In this document: positions 2,150 to 44,868 of the stretch, one piece after another
Layout: every line of letters begins with the position of its first letter
Position numbering within the stretch: position 1 is the stretch's first letter
Source of the DNA: an uncultured Candidatus Bathyarchaeia archaeon
Lineage (GTDB): Archaea > Thermoproteota > CALKCG01 > B24 > JAWCPE01
Direction of reading: 5' to 3'
DNA length: 64,000 nt
Assembly (NCBI GenBank): GCA_964427455.1
Contig: CAYRUY010000001.1
Span: 87,726-151,725 of the forward strand
Notes under the pieces: model-generated
Told to the model about the DNA's origin: nothing
Seen by the model: the letters and a program-made list of their open reading frames with translations, nothing else
Databases searched by the model: none
Program-made: the position numbers and the translations under genes

Positions 2150-2776
2150 GTGGCGCTCGTGGTCAGGCTCTTTCGTCGAAAGAAGGAGGAGGGAGCAGCG
2201 CCCACGGGGGATCAACTGAAGGCTGACGAGGCCCAGGCGTCGAAGCTACAGGTAACCGTGACGCAGGCCGCAGCTGACCGCGCTCGGAGAGAGCTAAGAC
2301 TCCTAGAAGTGGAGAGGGATGTCGCTCAATACGCGTTGACCAAGATCTTCGAAGCTGAAGCAGGCGGCCAGATAACTGGAGAGGAACGCGACAGCCTAGC
2401 GGAGAGATACAAGAGCCAGATGAAGACGCTGGAGGAGCGAATCGGCAGAGAACAGATGCTCGTAGAACTGCGAGAGCTAGAGGTCGGCCAGGCCGAGCTT
2501 GTTAGGCTATTCAACGAGAAGTTCGGCGAGCTTGACAAGAGAATCCAGGGGATGAGGGTTAAGCTCGGACAGACCATCGCGGCCCAGGAGGCCAAGCCTC
2601 AAGCCGCTTTGACTCCGGAACCCGAGCCGCAACCGCCGCCAGCAAGGAAACCCAGGGCGCCGAGGCCTGCCAGAGAGGAGCCTCCGAAGACCAAGGCCGA
2701 GTTCGAGATCGAGAGACTCCAAGAAGAGGTGAGAAAAGCCTTGGAGAAGCTCGAACAGATCGAGTTAGAAGGCTGA
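2150..2776 (+). CDS. coiled-coil protein with Pro/Arg-rich linker, hypothetical
   Basis: Heptad-rich, Glu/Lys/Arg/Leu composition. It ends 4 nt before rpiA, so it is probably co-transcribed. Confidence 0.35.
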   Translation: MALVVRLFRRKKEEGAAPTGDQLKADEAQASKLQVTVTQAAADRARRELRLLEVERDVAQYALTKIFEAEAGGQITGEERDSLAERYKSQMKTLEERIGREQMLVELRELEVGQAELVRLFNEKFGELDKRIQGMRVKLGQTIAAQEAKPQAALTPEPEPQPPPARKPRAPRPAREEPPKTKAEFEIERLQEEVRKALEKLEQIELEG

Positions 2777-6096: not shown

Positions 6097-7299
6097 GTGT
6101 TTCTCATCGCCGCGGCAGTCGTATGGGTGGCTCTCTACGCGGCTTCGAGGCGGCTGCCTTTCAAGAAGTACGGGTTGGAGATGAATCCGCTCGTTCTGAT
6201 GTTCAGGACACGGAGGTTCAATGAATGGCTAGACAGGGCTGCGAACAAGCATCCGAGGTTCTGGAGAGCCTACTCGAACGTGGCGATACCTGTGGCAGGT
6301 CTACACATGGCCTTGGCGCTCTACCTGCTGGTCTCAAACTTGGGGTACTTTCTTGAGGAGCCCCGCGGCGGAGGAGCCGTGGTGCCCTTCATACCAGGCA
6401 TCACGGTCGACCTCGAACTCGTCGTATACTGGCTGATCCCGCTTGGAATCCTGCTTGTCTGCCACGAGCTCGCCCACGGCATCATCGCCAGACGTGAAGG
6501 CATAGCCGTCAAGTCTGCGGGCGTCCTCTTTGCCTTCGTCCTGTGGGGAGCGTTTGTCGAGCCCGACGAGGAGGAGTTGAAGAAGGCACCTGCGAAGTCC
6601 AAGCTCAGGGTCCTCGCGGGAGGTGTCCAAGCCAACATAATCGTCGCTTTGCTGGCGCTCCTGTTGCTCGTCGCCGTTTTCCGAGGCGCCCAGGAGGTTA
6701 TCCCCTACACGGCAGGCATCTACTTCGGCCGAGGACTGAAGCCTATCCCACCTAGGGGAGGCGAGGGGATCGTTATCTACGGTGTCAACACAAGCGGCCC
6801 AGCCTTCGACGCTGGCCTTCGGCGCTGGGACATCGTGTATTCCGTCAATGGCACGCCGACGCATTCCGTCCTCGACCTAGACGTGTTCTTGAAAGACTTG
6901 AAGGCGGATGAAACGTTTCTGATGAAGACAAGCAGCGGCGACCTGTCGGTTCAGACAACGAGAGGACAGGAGAATGGCATCGGCGCCTCATTCTTCGTCC
7001 AACCCTATTTCCCGGTAAGGTTCTGGCCTTACGATGACGCCGAGCTCTCTTTCAGCCTCTTCGCGGTGATCGGCGGGACGCAGGCCTTGAACCTCGCTGT
7101 TGGAATCTTCAATATGCTGCCTCTGTATCCTCTTGACGGCGAGGCCTATCTGGCAACGCTGATCCGCGAACTACACAAGAGCCCTAACAAGGAGAAATAC
7201 GCGAGGATAGCTGTGAACCTGGCCGTAGCCTCGATCTTCTTCGCCAACATAGGCTTCTCGTTACTCAACTGGGGCTTCTTCCTGACTCTTCGAAGGTGA
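6097..7299 (+). CDS. site-2 protease (M50 family) with PDZ domain
   Basis: HELAHG zinc motif in a TM helix, NMLPLYPLDGEAYL (LDG motif), multi-TM, central PDZ-like segment. Confidence 0.8.
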   Translation: MFLIAAAVVWVALYAASRRLPFKKYGLEMNPLVLMFRTRRFNEWLDRAANKHPRFWRAYSNVAIPVAGLHMALALYLLVSNLGYFLEEPRGGGAVVPFIPGITVDLELVVYWLIPLGILLVCHELAHGIIARREGIAVKSAGVLFAFVLWGAFVEPDEEELKKAPAKSKLRVLAGGVQANIIVALLALLLLVAVFRGAQEVIPYTAGIYFGRGLKPIPPRGGEGIVIYGVNTSGPAFDAGLRRWDIVYSVNGTPTHSVLDLDVFLKDLKADETFLMKTSSGDLSVQTTRGQENGIGASFFVQPYFPVRFWPYDDAELSFSLFAVIGGTQALNLAVGIFNMLPLYPLDGEAYLATLIRELHKSPNKEKYARIAVNLAVASIFFANIGFSLLNWGFFLTLRR

Positions 7300-8309
7300 C
7301 TCGGTCAGACTGGAGAAGCGGTACCGTAAGGGCTGTGTACCACCGGGATGAAAAGGACTGTGTAGGAGTTCGGTCGCGCCTGAGATGCGGGAAATGCGGC
7401 TTGGAAGCGGTCTTTCGAAGGGTCTACTCAGGGGAGAGCCTGTGCAGAGGCCATTTCCTCAGCTCTGTAGAGAGGCGTGTCTACGCGACGATGAAGAGGT
7501 ACCGTATGTTGGCGCCGACCGATTCCGTGGCCTTAGCCGTCTCAGGCGGGAAGGACAGCACCTCTCTGTTACACATACTCGCTAAGATCGAGAAGAGGTT
7601 CCCAAAGGCGAGGCTCATAGCGATAACCGTCGATGAAGGGATAAAGGGTTACCGGGATGAAGCCGTCAGGATCGCAGGTGAGAACTGTGACAAGCTAGGC
7701 GTTGAGCATAGGCTCGTGTCTTTCGTTGACCTATACGGCTTTCCGCTAGACAGCATCGTCGAGAAGGCAGAAGCGGCCAGCTCGAAGCTAACCCCGTGCT
7801 CCTACTGTGGAGTGCTGAGGAGGAAGGCGTTGAACCGTGGGGCTGTTGCACTTGGGGCGACGAAGCTCGCTACGGCGCATAACTTAGACGACATCGTGCA
7901 GACGGTAATCTTGAACCTCTTTCACGGCGACCTCTGGCGGCTCTCGCGAATAGAGCCGTCCACTAGAAGCCCTGAGCAAGGCTTCGTTCCGAGGATGAAG
8001 CCGCTATACGACACTCCTGAGAATGAGATCGCGCTTTACGCGTACCTACGAGGGATCGAGTTCCAGGCAGCGCCTTGTCCCTACGCTGGTTCATCGCTGA
8101 GAACAGAGATGAGAGCGATGGTCAACCGGATGGAGGCCGAGCATCCCGGGATAAGGTTTACGATGTTGAGGGCCTTCGAGAAGGTTAGGCCCGCTCTCTC
8201 GGAGGCTCAGAGAAGCTCCCAGCTTAACCCGTGCAAGAGCTGTGACGAACCCGCTGTCGGCGAGTTCTGCAAATCCTGCCAGATGCTCAAGGATATAGGC
8301 CTCCGCTAA
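7296..8309 (+). CDS. tRNA 2-thiolation PP-loop ATPase (TtuA/NcsA/Ctu1 family)
   Basis: SGGKDS PP-loop. N-terminal CxxC...CxxH and C-terminal CxxC...CxxC zinc/Fe-S knuckles are typical of TtuA/Ncs6. Confidence 0.75.
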   Translation: MTRSDWRSGTVRAVYHRDEKDCVGVRSRLRCGKCGLEAVFRRVYSGESLCRGHFLSSVERRVYATMKRYRMLAPTDSVALAVSGGKDSTSLLHILAKIEKRFPKARLIAITVDEGIKGYRDEAVRIAGENCDKLGVEHRLVSFVDLYGFPLDSIVEKAEAASSKLTPCSYCGVLRRKALNRGAVALGATKLATAHNLDDIVQTVILNLFHGDLWRLSRIEPSTRSPEQGFVPRMKPLYDTPENEIALYAYLRGIEFQAAPCPYAGSSLRTEMRAMVNRMEAEHPGIRFTMLRAFEKVRPALSEAQRSSQLNPCKSCDEPAVGEFCKSCQMLKDIGLR

Positions 8310-40711: not shown

Positions 40712-41944
40712 CTACCTCAAGATGCCGTAGCCTATGAGCCTCCATCGTTCTCCTATTCTTCGGCTGATCGCCACCCTTTGGCCTTCCATCGCGCAGACGG
40801 CACGCTTGAGAGGGACGACCACATGGTCCTTCTTCGAACTGCTCACGAGACCTGATGTCACCGTGGTTGCAGCGTTGAGAAGCAGGGGTTCACCGAGCTT
40901 AATCGGGTCGACCTTCACCAAGTCAGTTGTGCCCACCGCTATGTCGAATAGCGTCACGTCCAGGTCCAGCTGAGACCTTACTTCAGGCAGCGAACCTGGC
41001 TTTCCGAGGAGATTTCCGACCAACTTGTCGGCCTTCGTGATACTCGGGTCGAGTCTTGTCCCAACCCCGACGAGGCCTCCAGGCATTGCCCTCTCAACGC
41101 CCCGGTTTCCATAGTGGAGGCTCACGACAGTGGTGAAGAGTGGCTCGTACACCCCCTTTTTCTCAACCCTCATGCCCGGCCGAATCTCGATCTCATCACC
41201 TATGCCCAGAGCCCCTTCGACCATCGAACCTCCAAGGACGCCGCCGACGAGGCTAGAGGGCTTCGTGCCAGGCTTGTTTACGTCGAATGAGCGGACGACC
41301 AGCATTCTTGCAGGCTTCGCTGGGTCACGGCTTGGTGTTGGGATCTCTCTCTCCAAAGCCTCGATTAGGTACCCTATGTTCGTTCCGTGTTGAGCCGAGA
41401 CTGGAATGATCGGCGCGTCCGCAGCTATCGTGCCCTTCGTGAAGCTAATGATCTGTTGATAGTTAGCCTCGGCTGCCTGACGGTTTACGATGTCGATCTT
41501 GTTCTGGACGATGACTAGGTCCTTCAAGCCCATTATCTCTACGGCGGCCAGATGCTCCCTTGTCTGCGGCTGAGGGCACGGTTCATCGGCCGCGATCACA
41601 AGGATAGCTCCGTCCATCACGGCGGCGCCGCAGAGCATCGTAGCCATCAGTATCTCATGGCCGGGAGCATCGACGAAGCTCACGGTTCTAAGGAGTTCCG
41701 CATCACCGCCGCAACTCGGGCAGGTGGCCTTTACTGAGTAACATTCAGGAGGCGGGCAAGCAGGGCATTTGTAGAAACTCGCATCTGCGTAGCCCAGCTT
41801 GATCGTGACGCCTCTTCGAAGCTCCTCGCTGTGTCTGCTCGCCCAAACACCTGTCAGGCTCTCGACGAGCGTCGTCTTCCCATGGTCTACATGACCGACA
41901 GTGCCAATGTTCGCTTCAGGAGGCTTCGGTGGCACAACCGTCAT
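40712..41944 (-). CDS. eif2g: translation initiation factor 2 subunit gamma (aIF2-gamma)
   Basis: [13 protein letters not shown], zinc ribbon [10 protein letters not shown]...CPSCGG, full-length EF-Tu-like architecture. Confidence 0.9.
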   Translation of the reverse strand: [410 protein letters not shown]

Positions 41945-42330
41945 CTCTCCCCTTTTCCTCCAACCTCCTCGGCCACCGCCGGCTCTGCCGATACAACCTT
42001 CAGGTTGATCTGCATAACGTCCTCAGTTATCGTGTTCCCTCTGACTAGCTTCCTCCTCCTCTCGCCTCTCACACGCGGGTTGAACCCGGTCTCGCCGCTC
42101 AACAACACGCTCTTCTTAGCCCCTCCCCTAACGTTCGAGCGTAGAGGAAAACCGTCCTTGTCGCTGCCCCCGGTGATAAGCAATAGCTCGCTGCCGAGCC
42201 CGATCACAGAGCCATCCAAGGTCTCTCCTAGCTTCCTCCCTAGGAAGGGGACGGCGCTCGGTCCTTCGACCTCGACGCTCTTCGACTTCCCAGTCTCAGG
42301 ATCCGAGATTATCAGCTTGTACTTAGGCAA
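41941..42330 (-). CDS. rps6e: 30S ribosomal protein S6e
   Basis: MPKYKLIISDPETGKSKSVEV N-terminus and length are diagnostic of S6e. Confidence 0.85.
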   Translation of the reverse strand: MPKYKLIISDPETGKSKSVEVEGPSAVPFLGRKLGETLDGSVIGLGSELLLITGGSDKDGFPLRSNVRGGAKKSVLLSGETGFNPRVRGERRRKLVRGNTITEDVMQINLKVVSAEPAVAEEVGGKGER

Positions 42331-42671
42331 GCTCGGCCTCCAAATGGATGGTTAGAATAGCCGTGCCAAGGTTCATTTAAACCTTCCTCGGCTAGCGCCC
42401 GTTCAAGGCGTACCACTCAGAGGCGCCGAACGTACTTGAGAGAACTCATGTCAAAGGACAGATCGAACGACGTTGACGGCCACACCTGAGAGAAGTGCAC
42501 TGTCAGCGTCGAGGATATGGCGAAGACACGAGAGGAGACCCGGCGATCGCTATGGAAGGCCGCTGTGCTTATTCGCACTAGTAGCCGGGCAGTCGGAATC
42601 GGGCGGCTTGTTTCCGTCCACACGACGCCGACGCAGTATGATCGATATGGTAGCTGGGCCGCAGATGTGCG

Positions 42672-44508
42672 CTAGAGACCCCAGAGAGGATTAGCCTTTC
42701 TGTAGATCTCGACTGTCTCTTGGAGGACTTCTCGTTCATCTGGGCTTAGGAGGGAGGCGAACCTCTCGATAAGTGCCTTTGCGTGTCTCTCCGGGACCTG
42801 GACGTAGAGCGTCTCTCCCTCGTTTACCTGCCTTCCCACGGTCGGGCCCTCAAGCGAGATGGCGACCTCCATTCCGCTAATGGCCTCTGGGATGTTCTTT
42901 CCCTGTTCTTGGATCTGGAGGATCGTGCCAACTTCCTCTCCGTCAGCGTTCATCACGGGCCACTTGGGCTTCACCTTTCCAGCCAGAACCTCAACGCCCA
43001 CGATCGCGGGTTTGCTTCGCCTGAACACGTACCCTGGGATTACCCGGACCTTGCCTGGGATAACCAGCTCCTCAAGAGCCTCTCTGAGCCGTCTCTCTTC
43101 CTCGCTCTTCATCCACTCCGTGTAGACGTCCAAGAGCTGGTATATGATGTCATGCTTGAAGATCCTCACCTCGCCTGCAGATTCCTTCTCGGCGTCAGGC
43201 AGCACCCTCACGTTGAAGGCGAGGATCGCCCCGTAGATGGGGTTAGTGCGACCGACCACCTGCGCCTCGACCACATCTCGCTTGGAGACATCGCCTATGT
43301 CCGCCATCCTCACCGGGATGCCTCGGTTGTCAAGCTCACCCTTCAGAGCCTCCAGGGAGCCTAGCGTGTCAGCCTTGAGAACGACGCCTATGCGGTCAGT
43401 TATGATCCTGAACCTGTTGATCTCCTCAACCACCTCCACCTCGTATGCCTCAGGCGGCATCCCTGGGGGTACGCCATACAGTGGCGAGCCCGCTAGGGCC
43501 TCCTCGAGCCCGGGCGCCACTATCTTCACTCCCGCCGCCGCAGTGACCGTGTCCACGGGGGTGAAGCCTCCTGAGGGAGCCCTCATCTCTTCCAGGGGTT
43601 TCGGGGCGAGGAGAGCTCTGACTCTGACCGCAAGTGGCCCGTTCTTGCCTGCTAGGACGACGGTGTCGCCCTCCTTGAGGACCCCGTCATAGATGATGGT
43701 GTTCAACGTCGTGCCCAGGCCGGGTTCCTCCTTCACCTCTAGAACCGCGCCTCTCGCTGGGCCTTCTGTGGCCTTCAACCGGTCCTTCATGTAGTGCTGT
43801 GTCAGCCCCAGTAGGACGGCTAGCAGGTCTGGGATGCCTTCCCCGGTCTTAGCGCTGACTGGGACGATCGCCACGGTTCGCGAGAAGTCTCTGACCCTGT
43901 CGAGCCTGTCCGACCTGAAGCCTACACGTGAGAGGTCGCCTATGATCCGATACAGCCTCTCGTCTAGGCTCCTCTGGACGTCCTGCTGTTGGCGCTGAAG
44001 GGAACTCAAGACCGGCTCGGCTGGGTGAGCGCTCCAACCCGGTATCAGGTCGATCTTGTTCGCCGCCACGAGAAAAGGGGTCTTCCTTGCCTTCAGCAGT
44101 TCGATAGACTCGTAGGTCTGGGCCTCGACGCCCTTGTTGGCGTCAACGACGAGTATGGCGATGTCTGCGACTGAGCCCCCTCTCATCCTTAGGTTCAGGA
44201 AGGAGCTGTGGCCCGGCGTGTCGATGATGAGGAGCCCGGGGACAGTGATCTCCCATTTGAACTGCTCCAACATGGGTGCGCATACGGCCTTCAACGCGTC
44301 CGCTGGGAAGAAGCTCGCGCCAATATGCTGGGTTAGAGACCGTGCGAGTTCTCGCTCGCAGCGAACATCTCCCCAGGCTCCTTCAGAGCGATGGCGGTCC
44401 CGCGGATCTTGTCCAGCAGCGTTGTCTTGCCGTGGTCTACCTAGCCTAGGCCGGGATGCCCGGCTTCAAATGGCCTAGAACCACGGCAATAGGCTGTCTT
44501 AAGTACAT
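42672..44508 (-). CDS. infB: translation initiation factor aIF5B (IF-2 homologue), coding sequence interrupted by two short inserts
   Basis: The largest ORF (42672-44294) encodes residues from LTQHIGAS onward. The P-loop segment [24 protein letters not shown] is in another frame at 44369-44440. The N-terminus MYLRQPIAVVLGH is at 44470-44508 behind GGAGGAGG and a TTATTAAA box. Removing 29 nt and 32 nt restores one 591-aa frame collinear with aIF5B. Confidence 0.8.
44337..44368 (-). other. candidate BHB-type pre-mRNA mini-intron 2 in infB (32 nt)
   Basis: AUGUUCGCUGCGAGCGAGAACUCGCACGGUCU (boundary +/-1) sits between KEPGE and (I/L)TQHIGA. It holds a GCGAG/CUCGC hairpin. Length is not a multiple of 3. 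Confidence 0.5.
44441..44469 (-). other. candidate BHB-type pre-mRNA mini-intron 1 in infB (29 nt)
   Basis: UUGAAGCCGGGCAUCCCGGCCUAGGCUAG sits between codons GH and VDHGKT. It holds an internal CCGGG/CCCGG hairpin, and its GGCCUAG can pair with the exon-1 end CUAGGCC. Length is not a multiple of 3. Confidence 0.5.
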
Positions 44509-44868
44509 AGGCCTCCTCCCAGGTGCCCCGAACCCAGGTGCCTCGATAATCGGCCCCGCAGTTTAATAACTTGTCTGCAGCTGTCCCACTGGCCTGAAGG
44601 CTGTGACGTTCACCGGCCGAGAGATGACCGAGGCGGCCGAGGGTTCATTCTTTGATGGGGCGGGCACTCGCCGATGAATGTTGCCTCCCCTCAAATCGGT
44701 GTCAACCCCGAGCGTATGTTCCAGCGCCCTAGTGGGAGCGCAGTCTGCATCCACGTTTGAACGAAGACGCTGTATCACCGAGTGTTACTTGCACGTAGTA
44801 CGAAGGCTTAAAGCCGATCGATGCGAGCCTAGCGGCATCCGTAGCCCGTCGGGCGTGGATCAGGTTTC

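Follow-up and report, generated by a model that had tools for sequence, protein, structure and literature searches.

A 64,000-nt stretch of contig CAYRUY010000001.1 from an uncultured Candidatus Bathyarchaeia archaeon (hereafter the window, with positions counted from its first letter) carries a gene for the archaeal translation initiation factor aIF5B (infB) whose coding sequence is interrupted by two short inserts of 29 and 32 nt. In all likelihood, both inserts are genuine pre-mRNA introns of the bulge–helix–bulge (BHB) type, which is the substrate of the tRNA splicing endonuclease EndA; the splicing itself is predicted from the sequence. What the sequences show directly is the motif geometry, a protein restored exactly, structures that are conserved and covary in four lineages, and exons that are all under purifying selection. 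Coordinates of the gene and its introns refer to the minus strand throughout.

Predicted exons and introns of aIF5B

Translation of the minus strand (44508..42672) places the coding pieces of aIF5B in three different frames, as a first-pass annotation of the window had stated for the N-terminus of the protein. Before the correction to intron 2 given below, these pieces run over 44508..44470, 44440..44369 and, opening with LTQHIGASFF, from 44336 on. Removal of the 29- and 32-nt inserts joins these pieces into one open reading frame (ORF) of 591 aa. The spliced product scores 836 bits with the NCBIfam profile PRK04004 (aIF5B/IF-2 equivalog; cutoff 468) and matches it end to end, from residue 2 to 590 of the protein and from position 8 to 597 of the 598 in the profile; the restoration of a full-length aIF5B that the first-pass annotation had proposed is thereby borne out. 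Exon 1 (39 nt, 44470..44508) runs from ATG TAC to GGC CAT and encodes MYLRQPIAVVLGH; its last 18 nt are at the same time the 5' strands of helices h and H of the first BHB motif. Exon 2 (44366..44440) is a 75-nt micro-exon which opens with GTA GAC CAC GGC AAG and is collinear with uninterrupted orthologues. Exon 3 (42672..44333; 1662 nt, counting the stop codon), delimited by translation and by the PRK04004 match, opens with ACC CAG CAT ATT GGC and extends from TQHIGASFF to the C-terminus of aIF5B.

The predicted junctions in the spliced RNA (marked ^ here, as are cut sites) are GGCCAU^GUAGAC between exons 1 and 2 and GAGAUG^ACCCAG between exons 2 and 3; in letters, the ligated mRNA would read GGCCAU^GUAGACCAC and GGGGAGAUG^ACCCAGCAU. 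The corresponding junctions predicted in the protein, GH^VDHGK and GEM^TQHIGA, have the same length and the same residues as uninterrupted orthologues (for example P0008, P0010 and L023). Gene callers annotate only a truncated ORF of 540 aa (P0001), which has an internal TTG start and lacks the P-loop. In the unspliced mRNA, the first ORF encodes a peptide of 20 aa, MYLRQPIAVVLGHLKPGIPA, followed by a stop codon (44446-44508).

The region was scanned for strict BHB motifs, consisting of a helix, a 3-nt bulge, a 4-bp helix, a second 3-nt bulge and a further helix. The rule for placing the cuts follows from archaeal tRNA introns at position 37/38. Cut sites were set between residues 2 and 3 of each bulge, as stated for cbf5 (PMC2738675). 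Both inserts proved to be canonical motifs with the 3-4-3 arrangement when their junctions were folded, a check that had been suggested with the first-pass annotation.

Intron 1 (29 nt, 44441..44469, UUGAAGCCGGGCAUCCCGGCCUAGGCUAG) begins 39 nt into the aIF5B ORF and splits the P-loop (GH^VDHGKT). It forms a strict hBHBh' structure, in which h is the outer helix joining exon to exon, H the central helix and h' the inner helix; the full motif, from the outer helix to its partner strand, occupies 44429..44487. In the 4-bp central helix, GGCC (44475..44472) pairs with GGCU (44446..44443), with AU^U and AG^G as the flanking 3-nt bulges. UCUA/UAGA (4 bp), a 1-nt bulge (U) and GCCGUGG/CCACGGC (7 bp) make up the outer helix, and within the intron lies the hairpin GCCGGG/CCCGGC. 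The fold constrained to the BHB structure has an energy of −34.2 kcal/mol, only 0.4 above the minimum free energy (MFE) of −34.6, and the motif has a folding z-score of −3.2 against shuffled sequences. The motif starts 21 nt past the start codon and must therefore fold in competition with ribosomes that are initiating translation.

Intron 2 (32 nt, 44334..44365, UUCGCUGCGAGCGAGAACUCGCACGGUCUCUA) lies between GEM and TQHIGA and also forms a strict hBHBh' structure, with a full extent of 44328..44376. Its outer helix is CUGGG/CCCAG (5 bp), its central helix pairs GAGA (44371..44368) with UCUC (44339..44336), and its bulges are UG^U and UA^A. The inner helix, UCG/CGG, is accompanied by a 6-bp hairpin, UGCGAG/CUCGCA; in both introns, h' comprises 2–6 bp and runs on into a hairpin. 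The unconstrained MFE of −22.3 kcal/mol lies 0.4 below that of the BHB-constrained fold, and the 5' bulge is the sole difference between the two.

The boundaries of intron 1 agree with those given in the first-pass annotation. That annotation had placed intron 2 at 44368..44337, with a leucine at the junction of exons 2 and 3, and here the BHB structure moves the intron by 3 nt and makes the residue a methionine. The nearest uninterrupted orthologues have methionine at this position (...KEPGEMTQHIGA; ...KEPGEMTQHIGASFF), and the cut derived from the structure is therefore the one that yields the conserved protein. The stable hairpin noted earlier in each insert is present, as GCCGGG/CCCGGC and UGCGAG/CUCGCA. 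A pairing of intron 1 with the end of exon 1 (CUAGGCC/GGCCUAG), which had also been pointed out, does exist, in competition with both the BHB register and the inner hairpin; in the MFE fold, the exon GGCC (44475..44472) pairs instead with GGCU (44446..44443).

Conservation and origin of the predicted introns

In protein searches, the window gene groups with aIF5B of Bathyarchaeia/Bathyarchaeota at approximately 57–64% identity, and the nearest uninterrupted cluster contains Candidatus Bathyarchaeota archaeon B24. The closest hits are truncated calls of 540 and 560–561 aa, some of which begin inside the insert preceding TQHIGAS. A look at infB in related genomes, as had been recommended, revealed inserts at the same codons in three further lineages: L001 (85% protein identity to the window; introns of 29 and 31 nt), L002 (69%; 25 and 29 nt) and L004 (69%; 30 and 32 nt). 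All eight introns of the four lineages are strict 3-4-3 BHB motifs at identical codon positions. These strict motifs, the cuts that restore the frame and the three additional lineages together support the earlier proposal of BHB pre-mRNA introns in aIF5B. For each of L001, L002 and L004, between 2 and 4 independent samples and assemblies gave the identical sequence, and the truncated gene call of the window belongs to a cluster of four sequences, at least 90% identical, from three sources (JGI, ENA and NCBI).

The helix-forming segments of the four lineages were aligned for an analysis of covariation, in an alignment anchored on the proposed structure, and the support from this analysis is thus moderate and not decisive. 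For intron 1, 97.5% of the alignment cells are paired and two pairs have changed on both sides; for intron 2, all cells (100%) are paired and four pairs have changed on both sides. Among the latter four is a compensatory switch from G-C to A-U in the central helix, synonymous on the exon strand (GAG to GAA). When the 3' partner is slid by 1–3 columns, pairing falls to 7–50%. The inner helices of intron 1 have diverged in sequence among the lineages and kept their pairing (UG..GCCGGG/CCCGGC..UA, GGACC/GGUCC and UAAGG/CCUUA).

Synonymous positions that build the exon side of the helices are fixed in the intron-bearing lineages. For example, the glycine codon is always GGC in these lineages, which creates GGCC, and is GGG or GGA in uninterrupted relatives. 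Uninterrupted L023 already has CCTGGGGAGATG^ACCCAG and TCTA...TAGA, which means that the insertion sites were self-complementary even before the introns were gained.

The exons are under strong constraint. Between the window and L001, the ratio of non-synonymous to synonymous substitution rates (dN/dS) amounts to 0.12 over the entire spliced coding sequence and to 0.07 over exons 1 and 2 alone. Against L002 and L004, synonymous divergence (dS) is saturated, and all 587 aligned codons are open in the spliced ORF.

A neighbour-joining tree of 115 aIF5B sequences places the four intron-bearing sequences in an exclusive clade, to which the nearest uninterrupted sequence is 63–67% identical. Most parsimoniously, both introns would have arisen a single time, in the common ancestor of the four, and been retained thereafter. 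The order of genes, with aIF5B followed by S6e, eIF2-gamma and then a PIN-domain gene (window 40712-44508, minus strand), is common to the window and L001; in uninterrupted L022, S6e also follows aIF5B.

Two features are particular to L004. Its intron 1 (L004:510-539; 30 nt) is in frame and free of stop codons, and would add ten residues to the P-loop. If left unspliced, it would read GH-VRQGPPSLGF-VDHGKT, so that a P-loop-like GFVDHGKT arises again as a consequence of the palindrome in the GGCC/GGCU helix; the frame would still be broken by the 32-nt intron 2. In addition, ACG stands in exon 1 in place of the ATG start of the orthologues (L004:474-500, ...GGGGGTGTTTAA ACG CCT ATC AGG CAG...). 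No in-frame ATG, GTG or TTG is found in exon 1 past the upstream stop codon, and the same sequence occurs in L011, L014 and L020 (four independent samples). The ACG may be a near-cognate start codon.

A pattern scan of metagenomes at the site of intron 2 returned L001, L002 and L004 again and no new intron-bearing lineage with these exact exon flanks; such a scan would miss lineages that have other flanks or that carry intron 1 alone. Seven further contigs matched by chance (L009, L010, L012, L015, L016, L017 and L021). These false positives represent one unrelated gene, in which CCTGGGGAAATG...ACCCAGCATAT lies within an ordinary ORF. A scan of a genome collection with peptide patterns from variable regions of the spliced protein yielded only two unrelated bacterial GTPases. 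Short 'partial' aIF5B proteins on long contigs from other phyla were considered as further split genes and rejected as sequencing or masking artefacts. In L024 (2858-3096) there is a homopolymer frameshift, and the neighbouring TopoVI-A gene of the same assembly is also fragmented; in L025 (3073-3171) and L026 (3222-3320), aIF5B is broken by masked runs of N.

Proposed mechanism, chance expectation and alternative explanations

According to the mechanism favoured here, in which the enzymes, the splicing and the fate of the introns are all inferred, one pre-mRNA would be transcribed from the 5' region, and each intron would fold with its flanking exons into the canonical succession of helix, 3-nt bulge, 4-bp helix, 3-nt bulge and helix. 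EndA would then cleave each bulge between residues 2 and 3, an RtcB-type ligase would join the exons, and the 29- and 32-nt introns would probably be freed as small circles. The mature mRNA would encode the full 591-aa GTPase with an intact P-loop, GHVDHGKT. In the absence of splicing, a ribosome would produce only the 20-aa peptide, and the large ORF downstream would lack the P-loop. To our knowledge, EndA and RtcB are near-universal in archaea.

The 5' region appears equipped for expression. A TATA-like box, TTATTAAA (44562..44569), read from the sequence approximately 54 nt 5' of the start codon, is a putative archaeal promoter, and an identical TATA-like box (CAAGTTATTAAAC) is found in L001, the relative with 85% identity; a promoter function of TTATTAAA is inferred from its sequence and position. 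A Shine–Dalgarno-like sequence, GGAGGAGG (44512..44519), lies 5' of the ATG and is likewise kept in L001.

The probability that such introns arise by chance was estimated from 200,000 shuffles of each intron between unaltered exons. A strict BHB whose cuts restore the frame and a collinear protein occurred in 0.1–0.4% of the shuffles per intron, and was observed in 8/8 cases (both sites in four lineages).

Several observations count against the introns being genuine. With window-wide criteria for a strict BHB (outer helix of at least 4 bp, inner helix of at least 2 bp, length of 12–60 nt), there are approximately 145 motifs per strand in the 64-kb window versus 161–191 (about 180) in shuffled sequences. 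As the motif alone is not enriched, its genome-wide frequency was dropped as an argument for significance. The covariation score observed was reached by 59 of 500 shuffles for intron 1, which is weak, and by 2 of 500 for intron 2; there are only four distinct intron-bearing lineages, which keeps the statistics for intron 1 weak. The BHB of intron 1 in L002 lies 4.9 kcal/mol above the MFE, and in thermodynamic predictions for intron 2 of L002 and L004 the A-U-rich central helix is unformed. In the protein database, no fragment of more than 74% identity reads across the junctions. Neither EndA nor RtcB was seen on reading the 61 predicted ORF translations of the window, for which no family search was run.

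If the inserts are not introns, the gene might be a decaying pseudogene, inactivated by random insertions while another copy supplies the function. Such an account would fit the view of the gene callers, which see only the truncated ORF of 540 aa. It is extremely improbable, and was excluded because dN/dS is low (0.07–0.12, indicating strong purifying selection) and 587 codons are open across lineages. The same two interruptions persist, with intact exons, among lineages whose synonymous sites are saturated, and the inserts hold a precise RNA structure through compensatory changes. No second copy of aIF5B was found by tblastn in the 64-kb window, where the sole other hit is eIF2-gamma. An artefact of assembly or sequencing, whereby chimerism or error would have introduced the 29- and 32-nt segments, has a practically negligible probability. 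The data are metagenomic, and the split aIF5B calls of L024, L025 and L026 did prove to be artefacts; however, four lineages that have diverged from each other have homologous inserts at the same pair of codons, and the inserts are structured and covary. The recovery of identical sequences from 2 to 4 independent samples for each of the three relatives rules against an artefact, and the clustering of the window gene call with sequences at least 90% identical from JGI, ENA and NCBI points the same way.

Translational recoding, whereby the ribosome bypasses the inserts or shifts frame over them and nothing is spliced (as in the hopping of T4 gene 60 or programmed +1/−1 frameshifting), would require matching take-off and landing codons, and these do not match at either site (CAU vs UAG for intron 1, AUG vs CUA for intron 2). 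The gap lengths of 25–30 and 29–32 nt alter the frame offset between lineages, and, with intron 1 of L004 in frame, no single +1 or −1 shift fits. There is a superficial resemblance to bypassing in the stable hairpin of each insert and in the in-frame stop that each insert has (UAG 7 codons past the end of exon 1, UAA 10 codons past the end of exon 2), and cbf5 introns were formerly mistaken for frameshifts (PMC2738675). The conserved feature, nevertheless, is the 3-4-3 BHB geometry with its exon–exon helices, which would be without a role in bypassing, and recoding is considered highly improbable. A regulatory switch, in which the inserts are real EndA substrates and partial or conditional splicing tunes the output of aIF5B to the activity of EndA and RtcB, is an unlikely but more serious proposition. 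Both introns have been kept in four lineages over deep divergence, whereas cbf5 introns have been lost repeatedly (PMC2738675); intron 1 lies only 39 nt into the ORF, where its folding is set against initiating ribosomes; and removal of the BHB intron in the 5' untranslated region (5'UTR) of Haloferax HVO_1309 appears to affect expression (PMC7714728). On the other hand, no sequence feature requires regulation, retention may reflect the difficulty of precise deletion, and a sample of four lineages is too small to demonstrate that retention is selected.

The aIF5B gene was the only convincingly split gene found in the window by the BHB scan and inspection of ORF fusions. Screening for BHB candidates that would fuse ORFs on excision yielded 179 loose hits. 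Among the fusions of two long ORFs, those inspected join neighbouring unrelated genes (for example ABC-transporter subunits, or an M50 protease and a PP-loop ATPase) and do not represent split genes. The strongest BHB-like motif of the window (minus strand, 2616..2588; 29 nt, with an 11-bp outer and a 5-bp inner helix) is antisense to an intact ORF of 208 aa (2150..2776, plus strand) and for this reason was taken as a chance hairpin. At 7288-7310 (plus strand), another BHB-like motif, whose outer helix has 8 bp, lies where two ORFs overlap by 4 nt, one M50-protease-like (6097..7299) and one for a PP-loop ATPase (7296..8309). Its excision would fuse these two ORFs, which are unrelated neighbours, and it does not mark a split gene. 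The truncated calls P0055 and P0074 are intact genes with miscalled starts. Rfam gave zero matches in the window, both at the gathering threshold and at E≤1. A group I or group II intron (with a ribozyme core of hundreds of nt) or an intein (an in-frame protein-splicing domain) was also considered and rejected, as the inserts are 29 and 32 nt long, are out of frame and have no Rfam match. The first-pass annotation had described a tRNA with apparently non-canonical introns in the window and, from it, a plausible splicing endonuclease of relaxed specificity. No tRNA of any kind was detected in the window by ARAGORN, run with and without introns, or by Rfam to E≤1, and an enzyme of relaxed specificity is not required, both motifs being canonical 3-4-3 BHBs.

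Relation to known introns and significance

Reportedly, the cbf5 pre-mRNA intron was the subject of work by Watanabe in 2002 and by Yoshinari in 2006. The cbf5 gene encodes the archaeal dyskerin (pseudouridine synthase), and its intron, found in Desulfurococcales and Sulfolobales, undergoes EndA-dependent pre-mRNA splicing that has been confirmed experimentally (Yokobori 2009, PMC2738675). In the papers searched, endonuclease-dependent splicing of coding sequences in archaea is known from cbf5 alone, in these two crenarchaeal orders (PMC7714728, PMC2738675); other protein-coding BHB cases have been predicted for a Sulfolobus rudivirus and for Sulfolobus genomes. In the literature searched, which lay largely outside subscription journals, cbf5 was the only confirmed case of a BHB intron inside a coding sequence, and nothing relevant was found that links aIF5B or infB to BHB motifs or introns.

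The predicted aIF5B introns resemble that of cbf5 in that a short BHB intron lies within the coding sequence at the codon of a catalytic motif, with cut sites between bulge residues 2 and 3 (in cbf5, for the tRNA/rRNA splicing endonuclease), and in that annotation pipelines mistake it for a frameshift or a truncation. They differ in the host gene and in number, with two introns around a 75-nt micro-exon in place of the single intron of cbf5. The motifs in aIF5B are strict hBHBh' structures, whereas most cbf5 motifs are unconventional or relaxed (PMC2738675). The aIF5B introns belong to a Bathyarchaeia-related clade and are present in every member found, and their splicing is predicted where that of cbf5 is experimental. 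The cbf5 intron is usually located at the codon of the catalytic aspartate; the introns of aIF5B are not members of that orthologous family and are not homologous to it.

A BHB intron in an mRNA is also known from HVO_1309 of Haloferax volcanii, where it is located in the 5'UTR (Schwarz et al., 2020; PMC7714728). The HVO_1309 motif is cleaved by the splicing endonuclease. It is a leader intron, however, and leaves the frame untouched, whereas the aIF5B introns break the coding sequence, so that splicing would be obligatory for a functional protein. With the BHB introns of archaeal tRNA and rRNA, those of aIF5B share an identical recognition structure, a similarly small size and, presumably, the same enzymes (EndA and RtcB). 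Unlike those introns, they have an mRNA as the substrate, and the exon strands of their helices are also constrained as codons, which is seen in the fixed synonymous choices.

In the cytoplasmic splicing of HAC1/XBP1 in eukaryotes, the IRE1 endonuclease acts together with tRNA ligase or RtcB on twin stem-loops, and a regulatory role is proven. The likeness to aIF5B is one of analogy only, and consists of the structure-guided excision, independent of the spliceosome, of a small frame-changing mRNA intron followed by ligation of the tRNA type. The endonuclease (IRE1 in HAC1/XBP1) and the recognition structure (twin stem-loops there) are different, and proven regulation belongs to HAC1/XBP1. It is conceivable, though improbable, that both aIF5B introns are kept as a checkpoint which couples the capacity for starting translation to the tRNA-splicing activity of EndA and RtcB. 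A universally conserved and essential initiation GTPase would then be bound to two splicing events of the tRNA type, one of which passes through its P-loop codons and leaves the 75-nt micro-exon. This would make aIF5B an archaeal counterpart of HAC1/XBP1 and the first archaeal protein gene with multiple introns.

Very probably, aIF5B is the second archaeal protein gene, after cbf5, that needs splicing of its mRNA. It would be the first case with two introns in a coding sequence, and it would extend such splicing to a Bathyarchaeia-related clade. Annotation pipelines report aIF5B in these organisms as an N-terminally truncated protein of 540–561 aa that lacks the P-loop, and similar cases have probably been missed, or called pseudogenes, in other metagenome-assembled genomes. 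The aIF5B region offers a clean test substrate, in which an endonuclease of strict specificity should cut both sites, and intron 1, at 39 nt into the ORF, offers a natural system for the study of splicing versus coupled transcription and translation. With a second and unrelated host gene, pre-mRNA BHB introns would no longer be an isolated exception; here the gene is essential, has two canonical motifs and belongs to a different, uncultured lineage.

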